Shown one piece after another: positions 9,906-42,315 of a stretch of 64,000 nucleotides of DNA. The notes below the pieces were generated by a model, which saw only the letters and a list, made by a program, of their open reading frames with translations, ran no database searches and had not been told where the DNA came from. The stretch comes from a virus (lineage: Duplodnaviria; Heunggongvirae; Uroviricota; Caudoviricetes), in IMG/VR virus record IMGVR_UViG_3300042256_000013, positions 64,001 to 128,000 of that record; one strand, given 5' to 3'. Each line of letters begins with the position of its first letter. The stretch's first letter is position 1. The position numbers and the translations under genes are program-made.

Positions 9906-10232
9906 TTATTTGGTCTTAAGTTCTGCGACGATAGCAGTAACTAAGTCCGGTGTAAAATCAATGCCGAAAACTTCGGAATAATGTTTTACTGTACCTTCAT
10001 AACCATATCGCTTTTCGTTCAAGCGATAACGCAATTCCATAATTGCATTGTCATAGTTGAACCAAGGATTGTTCTGACTCGCATGTAAGCGACCCCAATC
10101 AGTCAATGGTACGAAACCTTCATCAGCAGACTTTCCCCGAAGAATATTATAGATAATATGTTCGTGTACAGTGTGCTCTTTCTCAAGTTTCCAGGTTGTT
10201 GTTACAGTAATGAATTGTTCTTTGTTTAACAT
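9906..10232 (-). CDS. Hypothetical protein
   Basis: 108 aa, HIIYNILRG. Confidence 0.75.
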   Translation of the reverse strand: MLNKEQFITVTTTWKLEKEHTVHEHIIYNILRGKSADEGFVPLTDWGRLHASQNNPWFNYDNAIMELRYRLNEKRYGYEGTVKHYSEVFGIDFTPDLVTAIVAELKTK

Positions 10233-10347
10233 AGTATGTTCCTTTTGGATAGTAATTAATTTAGTGTTTTGTTCTGAATTAATTGTATCCGGTGGACCAG
10301 TACTGAATTTCTATAGCATCATAAGATTTACCTTTTGTTTATTAAAT

Positions 10348-27766: not shown

Positions 27767-28027
27767 TTAGAAATCGTCGATGATACGAATAGTTTTCGCA
27801 TTAGGATTATCTTCGAAAATCTTTTCAAAGATTGCCGTAATCATGTCGTTTTCAAACCTCTCACCACGACTTACATTGTAAGAACCAGAACCGTCTTGAC
27901 CATAGATACCTTCTTCTTGACAAGCATCGCAGACTGAGTTCCAATCGAACCCAAGAAGTTCACCAACAACGTTAATATCGCTGTTGTCTATACTGTAAGA
28001 TGGTTCGATAATGAATGGTTCAGGCAT
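27767..28027 (-). CDS. Hypothetical protein
   Basis: 86 aa ORF. Confidence 0.75.
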   Translation of the reverse strand: MPEPFIIEPSYSIDNSDINVVGELLGFDWNSVCDACQEEGIYGQDGSGSYNVSRGERFENDMITAIFEKIFEDNPNAKTIRIIDDF

Positions 28028-28287
28028 TATTTCACCTTAACAGCGGAACGAGCCGCATCGTAGTACTTGTTGACTTTGTTGCGATACGAAATCACCGCTT
28101 TGAATTCATCGGTATCATGATTTACCGGAACGCGAGGTTGATTCTTCCAACAATCAGCACAATCGCAACCTACTGGAACTTCAGTACTATAGAAATGCTT
28201 ACTGATATGAGCCAGTACTGACAGGCGGTGTTGTTTCAAACGCTGAAGATTCATTTTCTTCAGTACTTCATCTTCTACTATCTTCAT
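28027..28287 (-). CDS. Hypothetical protein
   Basis: 86 aa, CDCADC. Confidence 0.7.
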   Translation of the reverse strand: MKIVEDEVLKKMNLQRLKQHRLSVLAHISKHFYSTEVPVGCDCADCWKNQPRVPVNHDTDEFKAVISYRNKVNKYYDAARSAVKVK

Positions 28288-28583
28288 GGTTTCACCATAT
28301 TAATTTTACAATCGGTATTAATGATTTGAACCCATTCGCCATCATCATTAATCATCGTAAGTTCTTTTTTGTCCTTAGACATAGTATACTCTTTCGTGTA
28401 AACATAGTCGAAGCGACCGCAGTTCAGACGAAAGTACTTATATCCAGGTTTGATGGTGTAGGTAGTACCTACGTCTGAAGGAACAACTTCAGCAGTACTT
28501 GTTTTATCATCTGCCAGTACTGAAACAGAGAACACTGTTAACAGTGCTCCGAGAATGAATTTATTCAACTTCTTCATCGTCAT
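28284..28583 (-). CDS. Secreted hypothetical protein
   Basis: Signal MKKLNKFILGALLTVFSVSVLA. Confidence 0.7.
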   Translation of the reverse strand: MTMKKLNKFILGALLTVFSVSVLADDKTSTAEVVPSDVGTTYTIKPGYKYFRLNCGRFDYVYTKEYTMSKDKKELTMINDDGEWVQIINTDCKINMVKP

Positions 28584-28869
28584 CTTCCGCTTCTTCATAT
28601 CCAGACTTTTCATGATTCCGCTGAACTGCGAGTTTGAATTCATCGGTTTCAGATACTTCATCAGTACAATATACCAGTTCCCACTGACCAGCACCATACG
28701 TTTCATTGTACGTATCGTGCTTCCAGTTAGACCCAATACCCATATCATGCTTACCCCAATCAGTATTGCTACTGAGATGGCTTGTAATACAATCACCATC
28801 TTCGGTAAGTGCTAACATCTGAACACCGAAAACGTGTGTAGCGTAAGGAATTACAAAGATCTTTTTCAT
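28561..28869 (-). CDS. Hypothetical protein
   Basis: 102 aa, SHLSSNTDWGKHDM. Confidence 0.7.
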   Translation of the reverse strand: MKKIFVIPYATHVFGVQMLALTEDGDCITSHLSSNTDWGKHDMGIGSNWKHDTYNETYGAGQWELVYCTDEVSETDEFKLAVQRNHEKSGYEEAEDDDEEVE

Positions 28870-29051
28870 TTTGTCTCCTTCAAGACTACTTCGAAGTTTT
28901 GAGTAATTGTGCTAAGTTGTTCCAATTGAGAAATAGCAGCAGCTAAACCTTGTTGGGCGATATGATATGCAGATTCCCATGAATGAGTATCTTTAGCACG
29001 TTGATGAATCTTTTTAAGGTTATTTAAACCTTCTTGTGAAACAATTGCCAT
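28866..29051 (-). CDS. Hypothetical protein
   Basis: 61 aa, GAGGA RBS. Confidence 0.7.
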   Translation of the reverse strand: MAIVSQEGLNNLKKIHQRAKDTHSWESAYHIAQQGLAAAISQLEQLSTITQNFEVVLKETK

Positions 29052-29067
29052 GAGTATATCCTCAATT

Positions 29068-29158
29068 TAGTACGGGTGACGAGATTCGAACTCGTAGAAC
29101 CATCAAAGGTTCGAGAGATTTTAAGTCTCTTGTGTACTGCCAATACCACCACACCCGC
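29068..29158 (-). tRNA. tRNA-Leu(TAA)
   Basis: AGAGA-CTTAAAA-TCTCT, long variable arm. Confidence 0.94.
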
Positions 29159-29167
29159 AATTTTTAA

Positions 29168-29620
29168 TCAGTAATTAGAAGTATCTAATTCAAAGTACTG
29201 ATCTGCATTTTCAGTATGTAAATCATTCATCTTTCCCCAAAAATTTAATGAACCAATTACACCACTTCCAGCTTCAAAGGAACCTTCGAAACCTTTTTCA
29301 ATAAGACGCTTATTCAATTCTTTATAAAGCATCTTACCATAACCTTTAAGGCGATGTTCTTCTTTAATGAACGCCTGAATATTGGTTCCCCAATAACGAT
29401 GACTATATTCGTTATTATGATACATAGCACCAATATACTTACCCAAATCACTCTTTAATAAAATGAGTTCAGAAGTTTTAGCTACATCTGAATCCTGAAT
29501 AATATCACGATAACAATGAATAATTGTCCATGTTGGTGAGTGATACAATTCAGAATCTAATGCAATTTGTGCTAATTCTGAAATTGGAATATTATCAGAC
29601 GTGATGATTTTCATTACCAA
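29168..29620 (-). CDS. GNAT-like acetyltransferase (putative)
   Basis: FIKEEHRLKGYGKMLY motif A. Confidence 0.6.
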   Translation of the reverse strand: MVMKIITSDNIPISELAQIALDSELYHSPTWTIIHCYRDIIQDSDVAKTSELILLKSDLGKYIGAMYHNNEYSHRYWGTNIQAFIKEEHRLKGYGKMLYKELNKRLIEKGFEGSFEAGSGVIGSLNFWGKMNDLHTENADQYFELDTSNY

Positions 29621-29814
29621 AGCCCTGTATGATTTACCGAGAAGATACGCAGAAACGTATCACACCAAACAATAGCGAATGGAATAAACATACCACACGC
29701 TGACCAAAACTTTTTCACATCCCAAGCAATTATTGCTTTAATTGAATTACCTGAGTAGTAAATTGAAAATAAAAATGACCAAATACATATAAACGCAAGT
29801 ACTGGACTCATCAT
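29614..29814 (-). CDS. Small membrane protein
   Basis: 66 aa hydrophobic. Confidence 0.65.
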   Translation of the reverse strand: MMSPVLAFICIWSFLFSIYYSGNSIKAIIAWDVKKFWSACGMFIPFAIVWCDTFLRIFSVNHTGLW

Positions 29815-30026
29815 TTTATGTCCTTTTTATCCGTATTTGGAGGATTCGTATTATCAAGACGATGATAGAATTCACCAAATAGCTTACCAACAAGAAAAAC
29901 ACTAATCATAATGATGGTCAGACCAATACTGCCAATTGAACCACTGACTAATGCACCATACATCAAGCTGGATACAAAACCAATGATAACTGAAATTATA
30001 AGTTGAAAGACGAAAGAAAGTTTCAT
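29811..30026 (-). CDS. Small membrane protein
   Basis: Start MKLSFV. Confidence 0.65.
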   Translation of the reverse strand: MKLSFVFQLIISVIIGFVSSLMYGALVSGSIGSIGLTIIMISVFLVGKLFGEFYHRLDNTNPPNTDKKDIK

Positions 30027-30226
30027 GTTACAATTTCCCAATCTGAAATATTCAATTCAAGTTGCATAAGTTCAACTTCATAAACGTGACCATCTATCAA
30101 TTGCCAGGTCTTACCATTTTTATTAATGTACAGAACAATATCTAATTGTTCAAAGTGTGGACGCCGAATATACAATCCGTTTTTAAATGAAGAATTAAGT
30201 ACTTTTAAAATTTCTGCGATGGTCAT
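30023..30226 (-). CDS. Hypothetical protein
   Basis: 67 aa ORF. Confidence 0.6.
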   Translation of the reverse strand: MTIAEILKVLNSSFKNGLYIRRPHFEQLDIVLYINKNGKTWQLIDGHVYEVELMQLELNISDWEIVT

Positions 30227-30409
30227 AAAATATATCTCATTTGTTGATTTTGTAAGTATCGTTAATCATTTTTTGTGTAATTATACGATCAATACCATCA
30301 GCAACTGCGTTAATCACAACTGCACTGATTATTACTACAAGTACACCGAACAAGATAAAACAAGCATTTTCTTTCAAGTACTTAATCATATCAAGTTCCT
30401 ATAAATTAA

Positions 30410-30577
30410 TGGAGCCGCATTAGGGGTTCGAACCCTACTCAAGTGAACACGCCAACCAGACGTTCAAGAATATCTTCTTGACACTCTATCACAATACCAT
30501 TATTGATACTTGTACCTTATTGTGCACGTTCCAGTACTTTCTCTCAGTGATGAATGGGAATCGAACCCATCCACGGC
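30410..30577 (-). ncRNA. 168-nt tRNA-like RNA with two T-arm hairpins and 3' CCA
   Basis: GCCGT..ATGGG-TTCGATT-CCCAT ... TAGGG-TTCGAAC-CCCTA-ATGCGGC-T-CCA. Confidence 0.7.
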
Positions 30578-30624
30578 ATAATTCTCAATTAAAACCTACA
30601 TAATTTATTATGTAGGGGAATAAC

Positions 30625-30945
30625 TTAGTTCACCAGAAGGACGTAATAACCGCCGACATATTCAATATCATCCCATTTGGGAGTATCTTCATCGTCTTCG
30701 TCCATGTGCTGGTCGTATTCGTTTTCTTCAATAACGCGAATACGTGGAGCACCGTCAACTTCAACGTCGATGGTATGATCCCAATTACCATTGAAAACGT
30801 AATTTTCAATATCTGCCGCTATTGTATCAATATGCGGCTGGAAGTCAAATTTTTCTTTGAAGTGATCAACGAAAGTTTGAGCTAACTCCATTGATTCTTC
30901 TGCAATGGTTTTGCTTTGAAACGGCATCATGTAGTTCTGGTTCAT
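30625..30945 (-). CDS. Hypothetical protein
   Basis: 106 aa ORF. Confidence 0.75.
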   Translation of the reverse strand: MNQNYMMPFQSKTIAEESMELAQTFVDHFKEKFDFQPHIDTIAADIENYVFNGNWDHTIDVEVDGAPRIRVIEENEYDQHMDEDDEDTPKWDDIEYVGGYYVLLVN

Positions 30946-30970
30946 GAGTCAGTACTCCGCATTTTGTTTG

Positions 30971-31060
30971 TGGTGATCCCGGCTGGATTCGAACCAGCGA
31001 TGTGTCATTAACTGTGACGGCTTATGAGGCCGCTGCCTTCGGCCTCTAGGCAACAGGACC
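30971..31060 (-). tRNA. tRNA(CAT), Met or Ile2, with long variable arm
   Basis: GCGGC-CTCATAA-GCCGT, 18-nt variable region, A-CCA. Confidence 0.88.
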
Positions 31061-31067
31061 GGATTCA

Positions 31068-31340
31068 TTAACGATAACGAAAATTACGTTCACTTTTCAG
31101 CAAATCAATCAACTCTTGTGATGGATTTGCTGGTTCATCAAGAATTTTCAGAAGTTTATCAAATTGTTCAGGAGATAAAATCTTTCTGGTTTCATCGATA
31201 TTAATACCGCAGTACTCACATTGTACTACTACGGTTGGTTCAGAACCTTCTTCACCAGTGATGAACTCTGAAGGAATAGATTCTGTTACGAACTTATGAC
31301 CAGCACCACTTGCTGGACATTCATCATATGGATTAGACAT
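31068..31340 (-). CDS. Hypothetical protein (Zn-ribbon plus C-terminal LDEPANPSQELIDLL)
   Basis: 90 aa, CPASGAGH...CEYCG. Confidence 0.7.
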   Translation of the reverse strand: MSNPYDECPASGAGHKFVTESIPSEFITGEEGSEPTVVVQCEYCGINIDETRKILSPEQFDKLLKILDEPANPSQELIDLLKSERNFRYR

Positions 31341-31355
31341 TGTATATACCTTTCG

Positions 31356-31742
31356 CTAAACTAATATTAAAGTAATTACCCAATAATATTTGTTGTTTTC
31401 ATGAAGTACTTTAACATTCGATAATACAGAGAATGTTGGTGTACCATCTGTATTATACACATCAACAGTACTTTGCCCTTTAGTGAAAGGACAAAACTTG
31501 TCAATATGTTGTGGACGAACACAACTACGTTCATATGTTCCGACTTTTTTAACATCAATGACATTATCATTGTCGTCAATTTCAGGAACATCATAAAGAC
31601 TTGGACCGTGGACACGATACATATCTTTATAAAATCCTTCAGTTACGAGTTCAAAAACATCATAACCTTGAACTTCTACTTTCAGTGTTAAACGACGAGA
31701 ATCAACCAACTCTTGCATTTCAACAGCATTCAGTACTATCAT
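31356..31742 (-). CDS. Hypothetical protein
   Basis: 128 aa, GGAGA RBS, TAG stop. Confidence 0.75.
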   Translation of the reverse strand: MIVLNAVEMQELVDSRRLTLKVEVQGYDVFELVTEGFYKDMYRVHGPSLYDVPEIDDNDNVIDVKKVGTYERSCVRPQHIDKFCPFTKGQSTVDVYNTDGTPTFSVLSNVKVLHENNKYYWVITLILV

Positions 31743-31763
31743 GATATTTCTCCAATTAAAAGA

Positions 31764-31873
31764 TGCTAAGAACAGGACTCGAACCTGTAAGGAAACCTCA
31801 CGGTACTTCCCATGTCCTATTGTCGCGATTCGCTATCGTCAGACACTACGTTTACCAATTCCGTCATCTTAAC
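31764..31873 (-). ncRNA. Leu-type tRNA-like RNA with 25-nt expanded anticodon loop
   Basis: GTTAAGA/TCTTAGC, ACG-GAATTGGTAAA-CGT, GTGTC/GACAT stem, long variable arm, ACAGG-TTCGAGT-CCTGT. Confidence 0.75.
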
Positions 31874-31874
31874 T

Positions 31875-32030
31875 TGGCGGGGATATTCCGCACCCTACCT
31901 TGCGTTGGAAGCCAAAGGGTGTTTATCGGCTATATGCCCCATTATATGTTTGCCAATATAAGGTAGTTTCATCTACGCACGACCCTACAGGTACTTGACC
32001 TGTACCGCCGCTTCGAATAAGCCTTTCTAT
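31875..32030 (-). ncRNA. Candidate structured RNA
   Basis: GTACAGGT/ACCTGTA, GTAG-ATGAAA-CTAC, ACCCT/AGGGT helices; ends CCGCCA. Confidence 0.45.
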
Positions 32031-32036
32031 TAGCAT

Positions 32037-32112
32037 TAGTGGCTCATACCAGATTCGAACTGGTGTGGACAGAGATTTAGAGTCTCCCGCTACGCCTCTC
32101 AGCTAATGAGCC
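32037..32112 (-). tRNA. Amber suppressor tRNA(CTA)
   Basis: GGCTCAT/ATGAGCC-A, GGAGA-CTCTAAA-TCTCT, ACCAG-TTCGAAT-CTGGT. Confidence 0.9.
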
Positions 32113-32133
32113 ATTGCTGCATTTGATACGTTT

Positions 32134-32162
32134 ATTATACCAGAGTTTTTAAAGTCGTTCCA
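32134..32162 (-). promoter_or_regulatory. Class-II promoter
   Basis: TGGAACG-N16-TATAAT directly upstream of the suppressor tRNA. Confidence 0.7.
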
Positions 32163-32177
32163 GATTTTTTTTGTAAA

Positions 32178-32399
32178 TCAAGTATTTGAAGATTCTCGCA
32201 ATTTTTGAAATTCACGTTCAATATGTTGAACACATTGTTCATATGTCGTAATACTATTAACAGTAACATCAACACCATTGAATTTAAAAATTACCGTAGT
32301 GTTCAGTTTTTTAGCAATGTCGGATGCTTCTGCATGGAGAGCAAAAATGTTCGTACCAGCAAATGCTTTTAATTGCAACGGGCTTTGAAAGTTTTTCAT
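32178..32399 (-). CDS. Hypothetical protein
   Basis: 73 aa ORF. Confidence 0.7.
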   Translation of the reverse strand: MKNFQSPLQLKAFAGTNIFALHAEASDIAKKLNTTVIFKFNGVDVTVNSITTYEQCVQHIEREFQKLRESSNT

Positions 32400-32408
32400 A
32401 AATTGTCC

Positions 32409-32675
32409 TTACTCACAATCATTATAAGTTAAGAAACGATTTTGAAGTACAGAGAATAAATGTGTCCAAACATCATTTTCTTCAAGGTCAGCGGAACAGA
32501 TGAATACACCTTCTTCGGTATCGCTTTTCCAAATACCTTCAGTCATATAAGGTTTCTGGAACCATGCCTGAACTGAACCATACATGTTTACAGATACAAT
32601 AGGCATTCCAGTAGGAATTGCCAATTCACATCCGTTTACATGACAATGTACTTTATTACTCTGACGTATTTTCAT
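32409..32675 (-). CDS. Hypothetical protein
   Basis: 88 aa ORF. Confidence 0.7.
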   Translation of the reverse strand: MKIRQSNKVHCHVNGCELAIPTGMPIVSVNMYGSVQAWFQKPYMTEGIWKSDTEEGVFICSADLEENDVWTHLFSVLQNRFLTYNDCE

Positions 32676-32953
32676 TTCGATTCACCATGAACGAATTTCA
32701 TAGCCGTTTCATAACCAGTACGAAGATTATCATACGCAGCCTGAAGTTCAGGAATATCGTTACCTTGACCATTAGAACCACGATTCATTATGATGTTATG
32801 GTCTACCAAATGGCGAAGAATGCGTAATTCACTAATCCAGTACTTTTTATCTTTTGCACAACCAGACTTAGCACGTAAATTGCGATAATCATATACTGAA
32901 TTGTAAATTTCACTGTTCGTCATACAAATTCCTCTTATCGCTTCTTCATACAA
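32672..32953 (-). CDS. Hypothetical protein
   Basis: 93 aa ORF; start may be MTNSEIY. Confidence 0.65.
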   Translation of the reverse strand: MYEEAIRGICMTNSEIYNSVYDYRNLRAKSGCAKDKKYWISELRILRHLVDHNIIMNRGSNGQGNDIPELQAAYDNLRTGYETAMKFVHGESK

Positions 32954-33216
32954 GCAATAATAAAGTTGAATGGTTTAAATGTCATAGCTAGCATTAACAG
33001 TGTATGAATAATATTCAGTACTGGAATAAAAGCTAAACCTGCCATAACAAAAATAAACCAACGTTCATCCACAAAGTGATATTTATATGATGTACCGGAC
33101 GTTTTGTTTTTATATAGGCGGTACAAATCATTTACCGCGAAATACAAAACAAACAATCCACCATATACCAAAGTAACAATACCATACCATTTAAGAATGG
33201 ACAAGATAATATCCAT
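32935..33216 (-). CDS. Membrane protein
   Basis: 93 aa, two TM segments. Confidence 0.75.
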   Translation of the reverse strand: MDIILSILKWYGIVTLVYGGLFVLYFAVNDLYRLYKNKTSGTSYKYHFVDERWFIFVMAGLAFIPVLNIIHTLLMLAMTFKPFNFIIACMKKR

Positions 33217-33364
33217 TATTACTTCCTCGCGAAGTCCACGAATACGACATTGCTATCTTTGTTTATCATAGCTTTCAGTCGTGCCTTTTGTTCATCACTC
33301 ATTGAAGTGACATAACCACGTGTAGGTAAATCTTTCATTCTGCACCTCTCGTCGGTAGGAGTAC

Positions 33365-33393
33365 ATAATACTGGATAACACACTGTCTGTCAA
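33365..33393 (-). promoter_or_regulatory. sigma70-type promoter
   Basis: TTGACA-N17-TATTAT. Confidence 0.8.
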
Positions 33394-33507
33394 GGACTTT
33401 TTTTGTCTTTTTTCGCTGGTAACTCATGAACAGGCATCTTCGGTGTTTTAAGAATATCTTTCATCCGTTCCAGCGGGTTTTCTTTTTGTGGCTCAGGTTT
33501 CATTTTA

Positions 33508-33891
33508 TCACTCATGGACGACTGGTGCAAGGATTTTATCAAAATACTCACGAATTACTGGGAAATCAGCATGTTCAAATTGACCTGCTACAAAATTAGA
33601 AGTACTAACCTGGAAATGCCATTCTTCTGTAATAGTTGGGTAATTTTCAAAATCAACACGACCACCACCATTATAAAAGAATGTGAAATAATCTTCATGG
33701 ATATAAAGAGTACCATCATCCACATAAAGACAGATATGTCCAGCATTAGGATTCAATTCAAATCCACCATCGGTGATGATTTGTTCTTCTTCAGGCATTA
33801 ACATTTCTGCAATGAATTTGACAGGTTTACCATGTACAGAAGTATACAAGTTGTAAATGTTTTCTAAGGCTAACAGTACTTCTTCACGCAT
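33508..33891 (-). CDS. EEW(H/F)FQLST-family protein
   Basis: TEEWHFQVST. Confidence 0.78.
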   Translation of the reverse strand: MREEVLLALENIYNLYTSVHGKPVKFIAEMLMPEEEQIITDGGFELNPNAGHICLYVDDGTLYIHEDYFTFFYNGGGRVDFENYPTITEEWHFQVSTSNFVAGQFEHADFPVIREYFDKILAPVVHE

Positions 33892-33911
33892 ATATAATTC
33901 CTTACAAAAAG

Positions 33912-33935
33912 AAAAACCAGCATAAGCTGGTTTTT
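33912..33935. terminator. Rho-independent terminator
   Basis: AAAAACCAGC-ATAA-GCTGGTTTTT. Confidence 0.8.
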
Positions 33936-33940
33936 AAATA

Positions 33941-34017
33941 TGGCCTTCCCTGAAGGATTCGAACCTTCGACCCACGGCTTAGAAGGCCGTTGCTCTACTC
34001 CACTGAGCTAAGGGAAG
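33941..34017 (-). tRNA. tRNA-Arg(TCT)
   Basis: ACGGC-CTTCTAA-GCCGT, G-CCA. Confidence 0.95.
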
Positions 34018-34046
34018 ATAAGTACTACAATGTAGTACTATTTTAT

Positions 34047-34406
34047 TTATTCCGCAAGCAAAGCTTCATCAAATGGGGTATAAGTGATTTCTGCTTTTTG
34101 GGATTTGCCATTATAGTAATAATGGCATGATGTATCACCAGGTTCTTCACCATGTACAACTACAGTGAACAAAACACCAGCATACATAGCTGAAAGCTGT
34201 TTCATATGTTCATCGTGTTTGTACCAGTATGCTTCAGAATCGAACCCACACAAGATAGCATCAGAACCAGATATTACGAAACGTTCATCAGTTTCCAGTA
34301 CTTCAAGTGAATCGAAGATAGCAGAAATATCAAGCTTAGCAGCTTTGATACCTGCTGGTAATTTATTGATCTTAGCACGAATGTCAAACGTTGAGCGATA
34401 ACTCAT
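34047..34406 (-). CDS. Hypothetical protein
   Basis: 119 aa, WYKHDEHMKQLS...GEE. Confidence 0.78.
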   Translation of the reverse strand: MSYRSTFDIRAKINKLPAGIKAAKLDISAIFDSLEVLETDERFVISGSDAILCGFDSEAYWYKHDEHMKQLSAMYAGVLFTVVVHGEEPGDTSCHYYYNGKSQKAEITYTPFDEALLAE

Positions 34407-34407
34407 T

Positions 34408-34602
34408 TTAAACCTCTGTAGTTTCAGTTTCTTCTTGTTCGTCGATAACGTAATCTAAATCTGAATCTTCGCAATCCTGTATCCAGGCATCACGTTCTTC
34501 TTTAGTATCGAATACAAACACAAACCCACGATAAGTGAATCCATATTGTGAACCATAAGAAGGATTTAGATTGTCATTAATAATAACTTTACTTGTAACC
34601 AT
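34408..34602 (-). CDS. Hypothetical protein
   Basis: Start MVTSKV after AAGGA. Confidence 0.65.
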   Translation of the reverse strand: MVTSKVIINDNLNPSYGSQYGFTYRGFVFVFDTKEERDAWIQDCEDSDLDYVIDEQEETETTEV

Positions 34603-34622
34603 ATTGCTTTCCTTAGCGTACA

Positions 34623-35030
34623 CTACTTCGTGTACTTAACTTTTACTTCGTGTTCGATACCATTAGCATCGAAATAGGTTACGGTAACATCAGATAATGA
34701 TGCCCAGCAACCTTCATTTCCTGGCCAACTCAGACAATCGAGTTCTTCGTAATCTTCAGGAGCCAGTTCATCATCATACATGTTAAAGAATAACCAGAAG
34801 TCCTGAACTTCATCATAATTATCATAACCACCTTTACCACTTGGGTACAGTTTTTGACAATTCTTCAGTACTTCAAGAAGCTTTTTAACGATTTCTGAAT
34901 CTTCATATACTGCGGTTTCAGATTCATTGAAATCCCCATCACCGTGCATAAAATTCATCTGAACCACATATTTGTTTTTATATGGTGCAGGAGGAACTAC
35001 AGGTTTCATTACTTCTAATTCAACATTCAT
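34623..35030 (-). CDS. Hypothetical protein (FMHGD family)
   Basis: MNFMHGDGD...VTYFDANG. Confidence 0.78.
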   Translation of the reverse strand: MNVELEVMKPVVPPAPYKNKYVVQMNFMHGDGDFNESETAVYEDSEIVKKLLEVLKNCQKLYPSGKGGYDNYDEVQDFWLFFNMYDDELAPEDYEELDCLSWPGNEGCWASLSDVTVTYFDANGIEHEVKVKYTK

Positions 35031-35033
35031 ATA

Positions 35034-35477
35034 TTACTCGCTTAGTTCGTTAAACTTCTTCATTAGCAATTCATAATCATCAATTATAACAGGTGCTGTA
35101 TATTTTGGTTTAATATAAGCTGATAAATCCAGAATAAAAGTACCACCAGTACAATCGCCGTAACCACTAAAGGTAACAACCAAATGATCGTTTGAATCAT
35201 AATTTCCATTTTCGGCAATTACTTTTGCCATAGAGAATATATAACCCATATCACCCTTTTCAGTACTGAAAAGAACTTTATGAGCAGATTCACGACAATT
35301 CATTTCACCAATCTTATGATACCAATGTGTATTATAACGTTTAACGTATTCAAGCTCAAACAAATCGTATGTTTGTTCAGGAGTGAAGTACTGTAACTGT
35401 AAAGTACAGAGATCGTGAAGACCAGAGTTTTTACCTTCATAGATAAACGCTTGAAATTTCAAAGTTGGTTCTTTCAT
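35034..35477 (-). CDS. Hypothetical protein
   Basis: 147 aa ORF. Confidence 0.78.
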   Translation of the reverse strand: MKEPTLKFQAFIYEGKNSGLHDLCTLQLQYFTPEQTYDLFELEYVKRYNTHWYHKIGEMNCRESAHKVLFSTEKGDMGYIFSMAKVIAENGNYDSNDHLVVTFSGYGDCTGGTFILDLSAYIKPKYTAPVIIDDYELLMKKFNELSE

Positions 35478-35488
35478 GAGGATTACCT

Positions 35489-35522
35489 TAAAAGAGCACT
35501 TTCGAAAAAGTGCTATTTTTTG
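35489..35522 (-). terminator. Terminator after the amber-containing operon
   Basis: AGCACTTT-TTCG-AAAGTGCT-CTTTT. Confidence 0.7.
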
Positions 35523-36089
35523 TTATTTAGGTAAAGAGTTTAAGTATCTCTTACCCGCCTGGATAAGTTTCTTCTTCTTGATTTTAAAAGAAGTACTATC
35601 CTGTCCACCAAACATTGTACAGTTCGCAAGGATTTCAGCCCAAGCGGTTATATAAAGAGTAGGTGCTAATGGATCAGACCAAATGGTATCAAAGTCTTCG
35701 GACTTAGCCATATGGAATGTCATATCCTTACGCATCAATTCTGAAATAACTGATTCTTCTGGAAATAGGTTCGACCACACATCAGCACTAACATTAGCGT
35801 GATCCGGGAAGTGAACTTTTCCTTCATCATCAACAGTACGACACAATGGTTTACCACAATCATGATATTCTTGATAACGCAGTACAATATCATCTGACAG
35901 AATCTTATCTTTGATTTTGCCATATACTTCAAGAAGTACAGGATCGCCCTATCCAGTGTCAAGTTCAGAGATCAGTACTTTATACTGTTCTTGAACCATC
36001 AGACCATGTGCGTGAACACTAAGCCCTTTCATCTGTTCAGTACTCTGCATTGCATGAAGTAATTCTTCGAAAGTGTTAGGATAAATCAT
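35523..36089 (-). CDS. HD-domain-like protein with in-frame TAG at codon 47
   Basis: ATG at 36089 overlaps upstream TGA; SVHAHG..ELDTG*GDP..YHDCGK..HFPDHA..DMTFH; TAG at 35949-35951. Confidence 0.75.
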
Positions 36090-36424
36090 TTAGCACCTCC
36101 GTGAAATAGTTGATATTTCTTGAAGATACTACGCTGTTCAGCAGTTACTGGAGCACTTGCAAATGCAGTAAAGCCATAATCCCAATCAGGTTCATGGAAC
36201 TGGACAAATCCAATACCAGAATCATTGAGTTCATCAAATGCTTTTTGTAACTTATGTTTATTCTTACATGAAATAACGATAAGAGAACTAGTCTCAGTAC
36301 TGTTATTTTCGAAGGCCAAGCCGCTTTCATAAGCTGCGTGGTTTGATTGTACTACAATCTGTTCTAACGGTAAGTCCGTGCGAACAAATACGTAGATCCA
36401 AGTTTTTTCATTCTAGTGAGCCAT
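36086..36424 (-). CDS. Pth2-like peptidyl-tRNA hydrolase with in-frame TAG at codon 4
   Basis: GAGGA RBS, ATG GCT CAC TAG AAT..., then WIYVFVRTDL..QIVVQSNHAA..LIVI..F.EPDWDYGFTA; TAG at 36413-36415. Confidence 0.78.
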
Positions 36425-36448
36425 TTTTATTTCCTCTATTTTGGTTAC

Positions 36449-36655
36449 TTAACTTTGGTTTTTTACTTCTTCCCAACGCCACAAATTACCATTTACTGGC
36501 ATAGTGTCATTAGTATCCTGAACAACTTCACCTTCGTAGATAATTGGAAGGGAAAGTTCAAAACGAGTGTTATTATTTAACAGATAACTAGCCTCAATTA
36601 TTGTACCTAATGGCACTTTTTGACCAGCAGAAAATACACATACAAATTTAGCCAT
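36449..36655 (-). CDS. Hypothetical protein
   Basis: 68 aa, GAGGA RBS. Confidence 0.7.
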   Translation of the reverse strand: MAKFVCVFSAGQKVPLGTIIEASYLLNNNTRFELSLPIIYEGEVVQDTNDTMPVNGNLWRWEEVKNQS

Positions 36656-36678
36656 TATGATTCCTCTATTAATTAAAA

Positions 36679-36924
36679 GGCCGTTGATGGTGTGCTATTA
36701 CGCCAAAGTCTCTAAGGGCATATATTAACATTGGACTTGATCCCAGGCTATCATACCCTTCGCATCCTTAGATCCATGCTGCTCATGAACCATATTAATA
36801 TATTCATTTCAGATTCTTCCCCTGAGCTTATACGGTTCCTAATTATGATAGATTTCGGAATACGGATCGCTCTTGACACTCATTATATGGTGGCTGCTTT
36901 CAAGCCTACATCCCAACAACGGTC
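36679..36924 (-). ncRNA. 23S rRNA GTPase-associated-centre (H43/H44) mimic RNA with internal insertion
   Basis: GGGATGTAGGCTTGAAAGCAGCCACCATATAATGAGTG ... GGCGTAATAGCACAC, closed by CCGTTG/CAACGG. Confidence 0.75.
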
Positions 36925-36932
36925 AGTGTTTG

Positions 36933-37130
36933 TTACATTTTAACTAGTTTGATTTCAACTAGTTCTACTTTGAAGTCAGGATGTTCATCTTCCCAATCTT
37001 CGCCGTATAGACGCACCATTTCATCAATGGCATCGCCTTTATATTTGAACATAGTAGTGAGGAACAGATCCGTAGTACGTGAATCATGTCCAGCCCAATA
37101 CTTAGTACTGTATTCTTGATCAATTTGCAT
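36933..37130 (-). CDS. Hypothetical protein
   Basis: 65 aa ORF. Confidence 0.7.
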   Translation of the reverse strand: MQIDQEYSTKYWAGHDSRTTDLFLTTMFKYKGDAIDEMVRLYGEDWEDEHPDFKVELVEIKLVKM

Positions 37131-37443
37131 TAACTATCTCCATCCACTCATCATGAGTTTTAAACTGTTTGTACTTTTCATATGCTTTTTCGGTTAATAC
37201 ACGAAATGCAACTTCAGACGTTTCCGATTCATTCCTGAATTCAAAGTACTGGAATATATTTTGTAGTACTGAGTGAATGAGACTTGATTTAATATGATAA
37301 TAAATCAAATCGTCAATGTGGTCATTTGGATATTCACCTAATGATTTCAATTCCTGTATTTTTTTATCCCGAAGAATAAATTGACGACCATTCATTTCAA
37401 GTGCATGAGACAATTCATTTACTAGCTGATAATTAATTTCCAT
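37120..37443 (-). CDS. Hypothetical protein
   Basis: 107 aa ORF. Confidence 0.75.
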   Translation of the reverse strand: MEINYQLVNELSHALEMNGRQFILRDKKIQELKSLGEYPNDHIDDLIYYHIKSSLIHSVLQNIFQYFEFRNESETSEVAFRVLTEKAYEKYKQFKTHDEWMEIVNAN

Positions 37444-37452
37444 ATCAGTACC

Positions 37453-38151
37453 TTAGTATCCATCATAGTTGTCAGGATGCAAGACAACAATCTCAATTAC
37501 ATCGTTGACATGAGTTTCGTTCTGATAGAACACAATAACCTTACCATGATTTACAGAATCAATCAAGTACCGCAAGATACCTTTACTGGTATAAACACGT
37601 TCAATTACACCAGTGTCTTCAATTACAGTACCATCAATTGTAGTACTGAATTTGACTTCATCCAGGTAATTAGGTTTATCTTTCAGGAAGTTCTGCAATT
37701 CTTCCTGTTTACGCCAAGCAGATTCACGTTTTAAACGTGACGCATTACGTACCATATATTCTGGAGTACTGTAATCAAAATCTGCAACAGTGGTTAAAGT
37801 ACCTTGACCATAAACACTGGTAATACGAATTCCAAAGTTAGGAAGTTCAATGTAATACGTTGGAAACGTAGCCGTCAAATCTTCGTAATCTGAACGTGCA
37901 TTATTTTGTGCATAATTCCAGAAAAGATTAGAAATTTCTGGATGTGGTGCATCTTCTGGATGGAACGTATAACTACCATCAACAAAGAATGTACGAAGAT
38001 AATCAAGTTCAGTTTTGAACGATTCTTCAGTATATGCCCTTTCTTCATCAATAGTATATCCATAGATTGATTTATATAAATCAGCCTTTGACATATTATC
38101 AAGTGCTTTTTGTGCCAATTCTAAAGATTTGCTTAATTGTGGCTCAGACAT
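37453..38151 (-). CDS. Hypothetical protein
   Basis: 232 aa, SVYGQGT. Confidence 0.8.
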   Translation of the reverse strand: MSEPQLSKSLELAQKALDNMSKADLYKSIYGYTIDEERAYTEESFKTELDYLRTFFVDGSYTFHPEDAPHPEISNLFWNYAQNNARSDYEDLTATFPTYYIELPNFGIRITSVYGQGTLTTVADFDYSTPEYMVRNASRLKRESAWRKQEELQNFLKDKPNYLDEVKFSTTIDGTVIEDTGVIERVYTSKGILRYLIDSVNHGKVIVFYQNETHVNDVIEIVVLHPDNYDGY

Positions 38152-38191
38152 ATATTATACCCCTCAATTCAATATTAAGTTCAATTATACA

Positions 38192-38728
38192 CTACTTCCA
38201 GAGTTTAGTCAAGCACTTTAATTCTTCTGGAACTTCATTATTTTTGGCATATTTTAATAAATTTTTACCAACAATTCCAGGTTCGAAGAAACGTGGCTTT
38301 TTGTGCAGTAGTACATAATCATTTGGATTATTCATCACACTGCTGGTAGTAGCTTTATACATCGTAATTGCTGAAATACGGATGGTATTACCATCGCGAA
38401 TAAGTTTCAGTACTACAATGTTCTGGCGATACAAACTTGTGTGACGCATGTTGACCAGTTTATATTCAACTTCTGAAGTTATTGCTTTAGAAATTAAATG
38501 TGCATAATTACTGATGAACAAATCCAAATAAGTGCTTAACAATGAACTTGCCACTTCATATGTAGGATAACGTTGCATGAAACGATCCTTGAAATGAACA
38601 CCAATTTGAAATTCAATATTGTAGTCGAATAAACGAAATACTTTTTTAATTTCGTCAGCATAGTGAAATGCCATTTTATTCAAATTATCGATAACGACCA
38701 AACGTGGCAAGTCCATAATTAACCTCAC
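38192..38728 (-). CDS. Hypothetical protein
   Basis: 178 aa, HFKDRFMQR. Confidence 0.75.
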   Translation of the reverse strand: MRLIMDLPRLVVIDNLNKMAFHYADEIKKVFRLFDYNIEFQIGVHFKDRFMQRYPTYEVASSLLSTYLDLFISNYAHLISKAITSEVEYKLVNMRHTSLYRQNIVVLKLIRDGNTIRISAITMYKATTSSVMNNPNDYVLLHKKPRFFEPGIVGKNLLKYAKNNEVPEELKCLTKLWK

Positions 38729-38876
38729 TCATAATCATCATAATTTTCTTTCAGACGTTCTTCCACCGTCATATTACGCATTCGTTGCGATAACGCATCT
38801 AATTGTTTACGTGTCATACGTGGAATTGTTGCTGGTTTCCTATTAGATGGTTTAGTTTCCACTTTCTTTTTCATGA

Positions 38877-39452
38877 TTACATACCAAATTCGTCTTCAGC
38901 ACGGGAAATGACTTCAATTGAGTCATGATACCAACATGGATTGTTGAGGAACACATAATGTTCCCAATTCATAAATCCTTCCTGTTTAATTTTGTACAGA
39001 ACCATACCAGTTTCCATGTTTTTAATTTCAACACGAGTAATAACACCAGTGGCAAGGAAATGAGTTCCAGTATCATCAGTTGTCTTGAAAGATACCGTAT
39101 CCCCAAGTCGTGGCTTATCTTCAAGGAAAGCCATTTCTTGTTGGAACTGAGTAAGTTCAGTACTACATACTGAAGTTTCGCACGGTGAACCAAGGAAAGG
39201 TTTAAAGTTTTCTTCAACGTGCTTGATAGCATCAATCACTGAATCAACAACCACTTCTGGAGCATGACCGGACATAGCGAAACGAACATCATTAATCAAT
39301 GAGTTCAGGAAGCTGATTTTCGCATTACACAATACAAAACAGTACTGAGCACCAGATTCCAACGATTCGTTAGAACGGTTACGAAGATCGGACACTTGTT
39401 TGAACAAATCATCTTCGGCTTTTTTAAGAAAATCTAGTTTTTCTGTATTCAT
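38877..39452 (-). CDS. Hypothetical protein
   Basis: 191 aa ORF. Confidence 0.8.
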   Translation of the reverse strand: MNTEKLDFLKKAEDDLFKQVSDLRNRSNESLESGAQYCFVLCNAKISFLNSLINDVRFAMSGHAPEVVVDSVIDAIKHVEENFKPFLGSPCETSVCSTELTQFQQEMAFLEDKPRLGDTVSFKTTDDTGTHFLATGVITRVEIKNMETGMVLYKIKQEGFMNWEHYVFLNNPCWYHDSIEVISRAEDEFGM

Positions 39453-39575
39453 TAATAGTATCTCACTGTTAAAACTTGATTTTGGTTGAGAGATTCAATA
39501 GTACCACCAGTACTTGAAATAAAGTGGTACAGTACCAAGTTATTACGTACTTCTTGCTGTACAACATTCAGTACT

Positions 39576-40460
39576 TCACGTGTCTGACTGTTTAGATAGG
39601 TCAACATCAAATATCTCTCTTAATAGATGTTCAATTACTGGAACCGTCCAGCCATTACCAAGCATTTTGTACGCTTGTGTGTTAGAGGACACTTTAAAGA
39701 AATCATCAGGAACTCCCTGAAGACGACAACATTCTACCACGCTGAGTTTTCTGTAGTCAACCCCATTTTTTCCATTTTCTAACAAAAAATGCTTTCTGAT
39801 GTTCGGATTAAAAAATACAACCTGCCTACGGGATTTATTGAAGTACTGATTACAATCTCCACCCTTAAAATAGTTCGCATCTATACAATAAGATTTTGAT
39901 CTATCAGTATACCCTGATTCTAGGATAGTACTTAAATCTGGAGACAACATTAATGCTGGTGGGATAATAAAGTTATCAGTACTAACCCAATAATAACGTT
40001 GTCTAAAATGAGCAGTATAATGCTGAGAGTTAATGAGATGTGGAGTTCTTCCAATAATACTAGTACAGTATTCTTCGAAGTCCTTCTTCATCTTAACATT
40101 CTCGAACAAGTACTTCACATCTGGATTAACACTCTTGATGTGATTAAAAATATCAATCATCGTATGGAATAACATTCCACGAGGATCATTTGTTCCACCT
40201 TGTTTACCAGCTACTGACCAAGCCTGGCAGGGGAATCCACCCATCAGTAAGTCTATTGAACTCCAGTCAATATCCCATTCTTCCCATTTAGTAACATCAC
40301 CCAATTGAACAATGTCAGGGAAGTTTTCTTGACTTTCCGCAATCGCGTACTTGTCAATCTCTGATGAGTAATAAGTGTGTACAGGCACTCCAGCATTCTG
40401 TAATGCCATGTACGCACAAGACATGCCGTTGAATAACGACAGTACTGTAATTGGTTCCAT
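39576..40460 (-). CDS. C5 cytosine DNA methyltransferase
   Basis: LSLFNG (I), EID, DLLMGGFPCQAWS (IV), FENV (VI), KMLGNGW (X). Confidence 0.93.
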   Translation of the reverse strand: MEPITVLSLFNGMSCAYMALQNAGVPVHTYYSSEIDKYAIAESQENFPDIVQLGDVTKWEEWDIDWSSIDLLMGGFPCQAWSVAGKQGGTNDPRGMLFHTMIDIFNHIKSVNPDVKYLFENVKMKKDFEEYCTSIIGRTPHLINSQHYTAHFRQRYYWVSTDNFIIPPALMLSPDLSTILESGYTDRSKSYCIDANYFKGGDCNQYFNKSRRQVVFFNPNIRKHFLLENGKNGVDYRKLSVVECCRLQGVPDDFFKVSSNTQAYKMLGNGWTVPVIEHLLREIFDVDLSKQSDT

Positions 40461-40479
40461 AGAAATCCTTTTCTATTGT

Positions 40480-40842
40480 TTATTCGTCGCCGTACTTTTC
40501 ATCCATGTAATCGTCATCTGGATCGATAACACTGTAGCGAGCTTTTAGTTCTTTAGATACGAGAGATTTAGCACCAGGATCATGAGTTACACTATTCTCA
40601 TAATCATAGAGGGAAGTTTTACCATCCATTACGTACTGTACTGATTCCAGCATAAGCTGAAGTTCATCCTTCAAAGCTTGAAGTGCTTCTGTAGGAGTTT
40701 CACCACAACCCATTGGGGAGATTTCATCAGTACTAGCTACACCTTCTTTGGTGTAGTATACTTCATGAATAGTCGCAGAGTACTCTTTAGTACCGTCAGC
40801 ACTTTCATGAATATTCATTTGTACTCGGTTATTCCAAGACAT
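40480..40842 (-). CDS. Hypothetical protein
   Basis: 120 aa, MSWNNRV..IHEVYY. Confidence 0.78.
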   Translation of the reverse strand: MSWNNRVQMNIHESADGTKEYSATIHEVYYTKEGVASTDEISPMGCGETPTEALQALKDELQLMLESVQYVMDGKTSLYDYENSVTHDPGAKSLVSKELKARYSVIDPDDDYMDEKYGDE

Positions 40843-40852
40843 AATTGTATCC

Positions 40853-41119
40853 TTATTTAATTACGGTAAATTCATGTTCAGATGGATCAAGTTCATCGAT
40901 TGTGATAACACGAAGCATACCACGTTTTATATACAAATTAAAGACAGCAAAGTAGTTACCAAAGATATTTTCTGGTTCTTCGTAATGTTCAGTTACTACC
41001 AACTGATGTTCACCACGACATAAACGGCGAAACAACTCACGGTGAATATCAAGGGTTTTAAATTCATCAGTATCCAGTACTCGACGTTTACGCACAACTT
41101 TAGCCATTTTGAATCTCAC
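40853..41119 (-). CDS. Hypothetical protein
   Basis: 88 aa ORF. Confidence 0.7.
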   Translation of the reverse strand: MRFKMAKVVRKRRVLDTDEFKTLDIHRELFRRLCRGEHQLVVTEHYEEPENIFGNYFAVFNLYIKRGMLRVITIDELDPSEHEFTVIK

Positions 41120-41279
41120 ATTTTACGAATTTGAATTGTGCTATAGTATAACAGAGTGTTACCGTTCGCGTCAACCTCTTTTATGGGGTCTTCGAACACA
41201 ACAAGCGTTTTAGGTTCATAACTAGTAATCATAAATGTTCGACCATTATGAGTACTTACAAGAAAGACAGGTTTATTCA

Positions 41280-41648
41280 TTAGTGCACATCGTCTGGATG
41301 CCCGTAAATCAGAATCAGTTTACCAGCAGGGTTATACTCGCGAGTTACTACACCTTTACGATCAGAACCACGAGTCCATTTAATCATACTAACTTTAGTA
41401 CCGTCAGCACAATTGTAGAAAGTGTTATTCTCTGGATCAGTACTTAAACTGCATTGTTCAGTTTTAATCTTTTCCAAAAGACTAATATACATTGGTTCGT
41501 TTTGACGAGAAGGCTCATTTAGTACTTTCTGTTCTTCTTTAAACCGTTGTTCAGGTTTAACCTGATAAATGTACAAATTCAAACACGTGAATAGAATCCA
41601 AAATACAAGAAAACAATTAAGATTCGTATTACTCATTTTCGTTCGCAT
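41280..41648 (-). CDS. Membrane-anchored hypothetical protein
   Basis: 122 aa, N-terminal TM. Confidence 0.7.
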   Translation of the reverse strand: MRTKMSNTNLNCFLVFWILFTCLNLYIYQVKPEQRFKEEQKVLNEPSRQNEPMYISLLEKIKTEQCSLSTDPENNTFYNCADGTKVSMIKWTRGSDRKGVVTREYNPAGKLILIYGHPDDVH

Positions 41649-41665
41649 TATGTTACTCCAGAAAT

Positions 41666-41689
41666 AAAAAAAGCTGCATTAAGCAGCTT
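41666..41689 (-). terminator. Terminator
   Basis: AAGCTGC-TTAAT-GCAGCTT-TTTTT. Confidence 0.75.
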
Positions 41690-41814
41690 GAAGACTTAAC
41701 ACCACCATTGTTACATAACATGGCTTGTGTGTCAAGGAAATTGTGAAAGGCGTGTATAAAAATTAGGGCGAACCCTAATGGACTCCAAAAAAAATAAGGA
41801 CACTATTAAAATAA

Positions 41815-41899
41815 TGGTGGGGATGGTCGGACTCGAACCGACACAACCGAAGTCGCCAGAACCTAAATCTGGTGCGTCTACCAATTTCGCCACATCCCC
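41815..41899 (-). tRNA. tRNA-Leu(TAG)
   Basis: CCAGA-TTTAGGT-TCTGG, long variable arm, CCA. Confidence 0.95.
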
Positions 41900-41919
41900 G
41901 TACTTCTTTATTTATCTAT

Positions 41920-41948
41920 ATTATAGCACAAAAAATTGTTACGTTCCA
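41920..41948 (-). promoter_or_regulatory. Class-II promoter
   Basis: TGGAACG-N16-TATAAT upstream of tRNA-Leu. Confidence 0.7.
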
Positions 41949-41952
41949 TTTT

Positions 41953-42315
41953 TTATTCTATAATATTTAAAATATTTTTCACCATCTGAATATGATCATA
42001 GCTGATCAATGTTTCGATGGTACTTAACTGGAAATGCCATTCTTCTGATATATCCAGTTTATGATTGACGATAATACCATTAATCATATATTCTAACTCG
42101 TTATTTAACACATTCACATCAAGTACTGGCTTATTATCTACAATAAAACGATGTAAATTTGAATCTCTATCTATAGAACGAATATACGTAAATTCAGTAC
42201 CTTGATGGAAATATCCATATAAAGGGGTATTTCTAACCCCTTCTTTTACTGATTCTGAACATTCAAGTATACGTTCTATAGTACTTTCAACACCAAGTAA
42301 ATCCACTACCAGCAC
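41953..42315 (-). CDS. EEW(H/F)FQLST-family protein
   Basis: SEEWHFQLST. Confidence 0.75.
   Translation of the reverse strand: MLVVDLLGVESTIERILECSESVKEGVRNTPLYGYFHQGTEFTYIRSIDRDSNLHRFIVDNKPVLDVNVLNNELEYMINGIIVNHKLDISEEWHFQLSTIETLISYDHIQMVKNILNIIE

Follow-up and report, generated by a model that had tools for sequence, protein, structure and literature searches.

Two overlapping genes are each interrupted by one amber codon

The sequence considered here, which we call the window, is a stretch of 64,000 nucleotides (nt) that comprises positions 64001-128000 of genome G000, that of a 371-kb jumbo phage whose nearest relatives are Erwinia phage Kaldavass and the Mimasvirus phages XbC2, CBB and GAP32. 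On the minus strand of the window lie two overlapping genes, here named A and B, each of which is interrupted by a single in-frame amber codon (TAG1 in gene A and TAG2 in gene B), and the same strand carries a gene for a tRNA with the anticodon CUA, the presumed decoder of both. Gene A (36086..36424) opens with the amber leader ATG-GCT-CAC-TAG (36413..36424), in which TAG1 occupies positions 36415-36413 and is followed by A. A Shine-Dalgarno-like sequence, AGAGGA (36432..36437, minus strand), lies 7 nt upstream of the leader ATG, and eight of the nine aligned relatives keep it as AGGAA. Beyond TAG1 the frame reads AAT GAA AAA ACT TGG ATC TAC GTA TTT GTT CGC ACG GAC and stays open for 108 further codons, ending in TGA at 36088-36086. 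If TAG1 is read through, the product is a protein of 112 residues (P0001) that the translation, profile matches, model and structural matches assign to the Pth2 fold. The nearest canonical in-frame start past TAG1 is a TTG 31 codons downstream, within the conserved fold. An earlier note on this DNA had described a strong ribosome binding site ahead of the leader, a frame that runs on past the stop and the lack of an alternative start, and our inspection agrees with it on each point.

Gene B (35523..36089, minus strand) begins with an ATG at 36089-36087 that overlaps the stop codon of gene A as ATGA. If TAG2 is read through, it encodes an HD-domain protein of 188 residues (P0002), as identified from its model and structural matches. 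TAG2 is codon 47 (35949..35951, minus strand; next base G) and would fall in a loop between helices 25-44 and 50-62, between the first conserved histidine (H28) and the HD dipeptide (H76-D77). The coupling, the position of this codon ahead of the HD motif and the open frames beyond both TAGs are thus as the earlier note had given them. The first in-frame start past TAG2 falls beyond the HD motif. Conservation and the model place metal-binding residues on both sides of TAG2, and neither fragment of gene B alone could be a functional HD enzyme. Homologues have V, V or S at the TAG2 position, which is in a variable loop and is uninformative about the inserted residue.

Both amber codons are conserved

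In an alignment of nine related genomes of Mimasvirus and Eneladusvirus, with 80-96% nucleotide identity, TAG1 and TAG2 are invariant. The question whether homologues carry TAG or a sense codon at these sites is therefore answered for the close relatives, nine of nine of which keep TAG. The surrounding sequence is not fixed: leader codons 2 (A, T or S), 3 (H or Q), 5 (N or I) and 6 (E or D) vary among the same nine genomes, as do many third positions. Contigs from three independent DNA metagenomes are identical to the window wherever they cover either TAG, and an RNA-library contig from a relative contains six substitutions around TAG2, none of them within it. Sequencing error, which the earlier note had named as one way in which its proposal might fail, is ruled out, since both TAGs are identical in the nine genomes and in the metagenome contigs. 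As judged from these alignments, the stops are genuine, lie in frame and are under selection, and there is no alternative start.

The predicted proteins resemble enzymes that act on tRNA ends

The AlphaFold2 model of P0001 is a single confident domain with a predicted local distance difference test (pLDDT) value of 93.3. Its structural matches in Foldseek are the archaeal and human Pth2 proteins (3erj, 2zv3, 1wn2 and 1q7s), with template modeling scores of 0.72-0.76 and a probability of 1.0. P0001 itself reaches 15 bits against the Pfam family PTH2 (PF01981), for which the gathering cut-off is 23; PTH2 is matched by 25 of the 37 members of the gene A family (best value 1.3e-18), and the family profile matches 2zv3 at 1.2e-8. 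The family shares the motifs R-x-D-L...Q..HA and acidic...T with Pth2. In the profile alignment, a gap of two residues stands opposite the GK of 2zv3, 24bt and 1rlk, in the loop that bears the proposed catalytic lysine, and no lysine is invariant in the alignment of the family. Because the family is without this loop, peptidyl-tRNA hydrolase activity is not assured. The Pth2-like character ascribed to gene A by the earlier note consequently holds for the fold and fails for the canonical GK lysine loop, and the product is best described as a predicted Pth2-fold protein of uncertain activity.

The model of P0002 is likewise a single confident domain (pLDDT 97.0), and H28, H76, D77, H97, D122 and H126 are invariant in 32 sequences of the gene B family, so that both the HD fold and the H...HD...D residues (PF01966-type) expected from the earlier note were recovered. 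By far the best structural match is to residues 250-448 of the CC-adding tRNA nucleotidyltransferase of A. aeolicus (O67911 / 3wfo), with a Z score of 14.8 and a root-mean-square deviation of 2.9 over 159 residues (VIA-align). The same enzyme is the best sequence-profile match of the family (2e-4). The HD domain of bacterial glycyl-tRNA synthetase is next, and many other HD enzymes score at Z 8-11. P0002 aligns only with this part of the 512-residue CC-adding enzyme and has no Pol-beta-type nucleotidyltransferase head. Since gene A has a Pth2 fold and gene B is nearest to the HD region of CC- and CCA-adding enzymes, both predicted proteins probably act on tRNA 3' ends.

The Pth2 and HD domains are fused, in either order, in the phages XacN1, Xoo-sp13, CM1 and pT24 and in several metagenomic phages. 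In metagenomes the HD family comprises over 3,000 protein clusters, almost all labelled hypothetical, and annotators have split or truncated both gene families in every isolate examined.

The amber leader recurs in distant phages and metagenomic loci

Distant isolates, in which the two families have only 35-57% protein identity, present the same arrangement: the first gene of the module formed by the Pth2-fold and HD genes begins with ATG, zero to three codons and TAG. These isolates are jumbo phages of Salmonella, Acinetobacter, Ralstonia, Xanthomonas, Stenotrophomonas and Tenacibaculum. The leaders read ATG CTG TAG AAC in Arash, ATG ACT TAG ATT in ME3, ATG TTG TAG ATT in RsoM2USA, ATG AAG TAG ACC in both XacN1 and CM1, ATG AAG AAG TAG AAC in Xoo-sp13 and ATG AAA TAG ATA in pT24, which has a Bacteroidota host. 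Whatever the gene order and whether or not the domains are fused, the leader precedes the domain that comes first, and it is the HD domain that is first and bears the leader in XacN1, Xoo-sp13 and CM1. In RaK2 the Pth2-like gene stands alone with a normal start, and a pattern search found no tRNA(CUA) in that phage.

A census of metagenomic phages covered 80 loci from IMG/VR and a replicate set of 71 further metagenome loci. In the IMG/VR set an own leader of the form ATG-(0-9 codons)-TAG precedes 60 Pth2 and 43 HD genes, and a further 3 Pth2 and 10 HD domains are fused behind a TAG-led domain. A normal start with an internal TAG was seen for 1 Pth2 and 13 HD genes, and a TAG upstream with no ATG within 10 codons for 3 and 4, respectively. 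No TAG was found in 7 Pth2 and 10 HD genes, and the Pth2 domain was not detected at 6 loci, the HD domain being detected at all. Only two of the 80 loci (L049 and L089) have no TAG feature of any kind. Unfused Pth2 and HD genes carry a leader each, and in 56 of the 60 leader-bearing Pth2 genes no ATG, GTG or TTG occurs between the TAG and the domain. The replicate set contains 41 Pth2 and 40 HD genes with an own leader. The spacing from ATG to TAG is mostly one or two codons. The stop is almost always TAG and never TAA; TGA was met only in a subfamily with a +1-frame arrangement and at L089, both described below. To control for chance, we compared other long frames of the same loci: ATG with up to four codons and a TAG, and no start close by, was seen ahead of 27 of 44 module clusters and of 5 of 527 other frames (Fisher p = 9e-30), and three of these five are themselves Pth2-family genes. 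The observation of the earlier note therefore stands, and its scope does not, because what had been taken for an oddity of one operon is a widespread cassette seen at about 150 loci.

The internal TAGs of HD genes in the IMG/VR set occupy three different positions. Positions unlike codon 47 of the window are HD 54 (L029, L031, L032, L033 and L037) and HD 30 (L069), and a Pth2 gene has its internal TAG at position 34 (L078). As the positions differ, internal TAGs must have arisen independently several times in normally starting genes.

A tRNA(CUA) gene often lies near the module, on the same strand

The tRNA(CUA) gene of the window (32040..32112, minus strand) was identified by ARAGORN and scores 53.7 bits against the Rfam tRNA model; it has the anticodon loop CUCUAAA, a G1-C72 pair and A73, and CCA is not encoded. 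Among the 30 tRNAs of the window genome it is the sole one with this anticodon. A gathering-threshold Rfam scan of positions 28000-42000 (14 kb) missed this tRNA, which reached its score when a 351-nt stretch was searched alone. For this reason negatives from wide Rfam scans are unreliable where tRNAs are concerned.

In metagenomic loci tRNA(CUA) is by far the commonest tRNA adjoining the module and in many the only one. In the IMG/VR set it makes up 51 of the 192 tRNAs found up to 3 kb from the module, all 51 on the module strand and at a median distance of 529 nt, and for 22 of 94 near the module in the replicate set, again all co-oriented. It is present within 3 kb in about half of the loci, to which relaxed searches add cases, and a search of whole contigs revealed clear instances in several of those with no copy nearby. 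The pattern used in the whole-contig search picks up tRNA-Arg(UCU) as well, and some divergent tRNAs escape ARAGORN, so that absence cannot be claimed for any locus. Among genomes of individual phages, we found tRNA(CUA) in the window genome and in GAP32, BF, Yen9-04, Arash, ME3, Xoo-sp13, CM1 and pT24, and the papers on XacN1 (PMC5852040) and RsoM2USA report it for those two phages. Every checked isolate with a leader encodes this tRNA. In Arash (L009, 2200-2274) it is annotated as tRNA-Phe, has the anticodon CUA according to ARAGORN and lies about 460 nt downstream of the module. In CM1 (L105, around 176.6 kb) ARAGORN also calls a tRNA with the anticodon UUA, of the ochre-suppressor type, besides tRNA(CUA).

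The 41 distinct cassette-linked tRNA(CUA) sequences differ widely, including in the acceptor stem and the discriminator base. The window tRNA(CUA) has no close paralogue among the 30 phage tRNAs, and no residue can be assigned to it. In a group of close relatives (L020-L026) both TAGs are kept and a differing tRNA(CUA) is found at the syntenic place, about 2.5-3.3 kb downstream of the module, with acceptor stems that begin, for example, GGCTCAT, GCCCTTG, GCCTTTG or GCCTACT. On the strength of such sequence comparisons, the decoder tRNA seems to turn over faster than its target genes. A comparison of neighbourhoods found no other gene conserved with the module, which defines the conserved unit as tRNA(CUA), the Pth2-fold gene and the HD gene; the genes that intervene between Pth2 and HD in some loci belong to unrelated families and include homing-endonuclease-like inserts.

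The TAG context favors suppression in a genome that keeps the standard code

The base that follows the leader TAG is far from random. In the IMG/VR set it is A in 66, G in 10, C in 6 and T in no leader, and in the replicate set A in 56, G in 12, C in 4 and T in none. At the TAGs that terminate genes of the window genome the next base is T in 13 of 19, a distribution that differs from that of the leaders with p = 2e-15. In Escherichia coli, amber suppressors classically work well where a purine follows UAG, and the work of Bossi and of Miller and Albertini is said to show that such a purine favors suppression. The codon before the leader TAG varies freely, and the commonest codon after it is ATT (36 of 82 distinct leaders). 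The co-occurrence, the linkage, the common strand, the almost exclusive use of TAG and this suppression-favoring context together strongly suggest that the phage tRNA(CUA) is the decoder of the TAGs.

In a heuristic set of 485 genes from the window genome, termination is by TAA in 376, TGA in 90 and TAG in 19, and among 177 open reading frames (ORFs) of at least 200 residues TAG ends one. The earlier note had listed six ordinary TAG stops in the window as a sign that the genome is not recoded. Read on the minus strand, all six are indeed TAG and terminate predicted genes, and the conclusion is upheld by the whole genome, in which 19 genes end in TAG and scans for coding past a stop brought up just genes A and B and a single additional candidate leader. 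A gene at 31356-31742 was considered as another case of read-through and rejected, as the 95 open codons past its TAG are the next gene in the same frame, which has its own ATG.

The further candidate lies on the minus strand at window positions 9906-10322, just downstream of a tRNA-Gly gene, and reads AAGGT-N8-ATG ATG CTA TAG AAA. Its frame runs into a protein of PHROG 22448, a family of unassigned function, 26 codons before the annotated ATG. ATG CTA TAG and the codons for STGPP that follow are kept, with synonymous changes, in CBB, BF and Yen9-04, and in BF a 2-nt indel breaks the frame between this leader and the downstream ORF.

A model for amber-gated expression

We consider it probable that these elements form a cassette of three parts and that its phage suppressor tRNA licenses the translation of two tRNA-3'-end enzymes, the read-through step being deduced from comparative evidence. 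A ribosome would start at the Shine-Dalgarno sequence and AUG of gene A and reach UAG at codon 4. There, either host release factor 1 (RF1) would end translation with the release of a tripeptide, or a residue would be inserted by the charged suppressor tRNA of the phage and the Pth2-fold protein would be made. At other leaders RF1 would, in the absence of a charged suppressor, release a di- to tetrapeptide and nothing downstream would be produced. Gene B would be tied to gene A by the ATGA overlap and would face its own UAG at codon 47, ahead of the HD motif. The leader would thus work as a translational AND gate, and without the suppressor gene B would be lost twice, through the coupling and through its own TAG. 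The yield of both proteins would therefore be expected to follow the activity of the suppressor relative to RF1, that of gene B more steeply.

The TAG sites would tolerate any residue, lying as they do in an N-terminal extension in gene A and in a predicted surface loop in gene B, and the diversity of the tRNA(CUA) sequences fits TAGs that are placed where any residue will do. As a guess at its purpose, the tRNA may act as a dedicated translational activator that ties the dose of the enzymes to the amount of processed and charged phage tRNA. Several purposes may be imagined for such a gate. It might be a licence or timer set by the maturation of phage tRNA; it might provide feedback, with read-through reporting the charged fraction of the tRNA relative to RF1; or it might be a feed-forward response to by-products of suppression. 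Whether timer or feedback, the purpose is a matter of speculation. We put forward only tentatively, as a proposal that we consider rather doubtful, the wider idea that the suppressor tRNAs of standard-code jumbo phages are dedicated trans-acting activators of a portable cassette of tRNA(CUA), Pth2-fold and HD genes and not general decoders, with read-through serving as a ratiometric readout of processed, CCA-intact and charged tRNA that is fed back on the 3'-end enzymes.

The earlier note proposed that the full-length proteins need the phage suppressor tRNA or low RF1 activity, and the part on the tRNA is in keeping with the co-occurrence, linkage, strand and context of tRNA(CUA), read-through itself having been inferred only. 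A second part of that proposal, a link to peptidyl-tRNA drop-off from minigenes, receives no support from the leaders, in which the codon ahead of TAG is free to vary, so that sequestration of a particular tRNA is not expected.

Alternative explanations

Several observations weigh against the three-part cassette as we have drawn it. About half of the loci showed no tRNA(CUA) within 3 kb, many of these contigs being fragmentary; a few members of the families have ordinary starts; the gene A family has the gap described above in place of the GK loop; and the ATT that follows TAG in 36 of 82 leaders is a possible rare start, so that reinitiation could take place there. This last point is the basis of an explanation that makes no use of the suppressor, in which ATG-N-TAG is a true mini-ORF and termination is followed by reinitiation at an adjacent non-AUG codon, often AUU. 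It gains further support from the +1-frame subfamily, where the leader stop overlaps ATT (CATTGAC) and the enzyme ORF is in another frame, so that read-through is not at work there. However, in the window and at many other loci the TAG is followed by AAT, AAC, ACC, GTT or CTT, which are not start codons, and reinitiation would leave unexplained why the stop is TAG and why tRNA(CUA) is linked on the same strand. Nor would it account for the internal TAGs of HD genes, given that in the window the next in-frame start is beyond the HD motif, and we regard it as unlikely. We give equally little weight to the possibility that read-through occurs without the phage tRNA, by leaky termination or near-cognate host tRNAs, with the leader sensing host RF1 and tRNA(CUA) serving some other end. 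The likeness to the release-factor-sensing logic of prfB and the loci with no detected tRNA(CUA) within 3 kb would fit such a scheme, but all leader-bearing isolates encode the tRNA, it is the commonest tRNA adjoining the module and always co-oriented with it, and genome scans found no other conserved target for it in the window genome.

The remaining explanations fare worse. A reassigned code, with TAG a sense codon in many genes as in crAss-like and Lak phages, would agree with the presence of tRNA(CUA) and with the rarity of terminal TAGs (found in 19 of the 485 heuristic genes and in one of the 177 long ORFs); it is most improbable in view of the 19 genes that do terminate at TAG and the confinement of in-frame coding TAGs to genes A and B and one candidate. 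That the genes are decaying or misread, as might be supposed from the mere fragments of both that annotators of related genomes have called, is scarcely credible, because neither TAG differs among nine genomes and independent metagenomes, both flanks of each TAG keep their protein sequence in relatives of only 35-57% identity, the full-length models are confident and the feature recurs at about 150 loci. We also examined, and rejected, an out-of-frame ATG in TAGAATGAAAAAAC that might give rise to the gene A product through a -1 shift or through slippage in transcription of the run of A. In the window A6 does come directly after this ATG, but neither the run nor the ATG is conserved in relatives: the run is interrupted in BF, in pEa_SNUABM_44 and in the two Yen9 phages (GATAAAAC), both of which have TTG for the ATG, and distant relatives have no such run. 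The conserved element is the in-frame TAG, and the chance that gene A is expressed from this ATG appears negligible.

Comparison with known systems

The arrangement invites comparison with prfB, the gene for release factor 2, in which an early in-frame stop makes the yield depend on kinetic competition at the ribosomal A site and the product is itself part of the translation apparatus. In the cassette, too, an early stop would make yield depend on such a competition. The two differ in that prfB relies on a +1 frameshift and responds to its own product, whereas the cassette keeps the frame and the competitor would be a dedicated suppressor tRNA; the +1-frame variant among its relatives is confined to a side subfamily. 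The bar minigenes of phage lambda, which consist of a two- to four-codon ORF and a stop, are tied genetically to peptidyl-tRNA hydrolase. They stand alone and need a specific last codon, whereas the mini-ORF of the cassette is in frame with a long conserved ORF and its pre-stop codon is free.

As to the enzymes, gene A has the same alpha/beta fold as archaeal and eukaryotic Pth2 (2zv3, 3erj and human Bit1, 1q7s), with the difference that the GK loop is found only in canonical Pth2. Gene B shares H...HD...H...D with the HD region of class II tRNA nucleotidyltransferases and differs from them in standing alone, with no head domain, and in being fused in some phages to a Pth2-fold domain. The HD domain of E. 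coli Cca has 2',3'-cyclic phosphodiesterase and phosphatase activity.

In recoded crAss-like and Lak phages, as would be the case here, a phage tRNA(CUA) decodes in-frame TAGs of phage genes. The window phage, in contrast, uses the standard code and has such a TAG in only two, perhaps three, genes; the TAG of the cassette is usually at codon 2-5, in a leader, and the tRNA and its targets travel together. Moreover, the targets of the cassette are genes for predicted tRNA-end enzymes and not late structural or lysis genes. For crAss-like and Lak phages, the use of TAG as a sense codon, with phage suppressor tRNAs, has been proposed to regulate a subset of genes (e.g. PMC9523058). Identical logic has been engineered in synthetic AND gates and feed-forward loops, in which early amber codons keep a gene tightly off until an amber suppressor is expressed (PMC7969014). 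If the model presented above is true, the cassette would be a natural and widespread counterpart of the amber-gated logic that synthetic biologists have built.

The literature that we searched contains no description of the amber leader or of the cassette. The authors of the XacN1 genome could not identify the targets of their two suppressor tRNAs (PMC5852040), the RsoM2USA paper names no target for its suppressor tRNA, and suppressor tRNAs appear in a 2026 survey of jumbo phages solely in the context of full recoding. It is likely that the long-unexplained amber-suppressor tRNAs of jumbo phages hereby gain a specific, conserved target. The results also point to an uncharacterised pair of predicted tRNA-end enzymes in phage-host conflict or in the control of translation, and they suggest that a minimally recoded but stable state may be an intermediate in, or the seed of, full TAG reassignment in phages. 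For annotation, gene callers should look for leaders of the form ATG-N(0-3)-TAG wherever tRNA(CUA) is present.

Additional observations

Two variants of the leader deserve mention. At five loci (L158, L173, L174, L194 and L197) a leader of the form M-x(1-3)-H-stop, its stop reading CAC TAG C or CAT TGA C, lies some 25-50 codons ahead of the Pth2 domain in a subfamily with the canonical GK motif. The enzyme ORF, which lacks a start codon, is in the +1 frame. This leader is followed by the conserved motif GACCGCAC, the frame of which differs between loci, and by a hairpin; a prfB-like +1 shift or another recoding event may be involved. At L089 the HD gene follows ATG TTG TGA GTG, on a contig with two normal-sized tRNA(UCA) genes and, by pattern search, no tRNA(CUA). 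We considered this as an opal leader, in which stop and anticodon would covary, and did not count it, because the TGA also ends an upstream ORF and a GTG start follows.

In the window, a scan for promoters gave no excess of sites over shuffled sequence. A palindromic GC hairpin lies just after gene B (35495..35514); identified by consensus match only, it is a possible end of the transcription unit. Elsewhere in the genome, at about 252-257 kb on the minus strand, eight segments in the same frame, split by TGA or TAA, have a high coding score and no nearby start. This run could be an artefact of composition or another interrupted gene.

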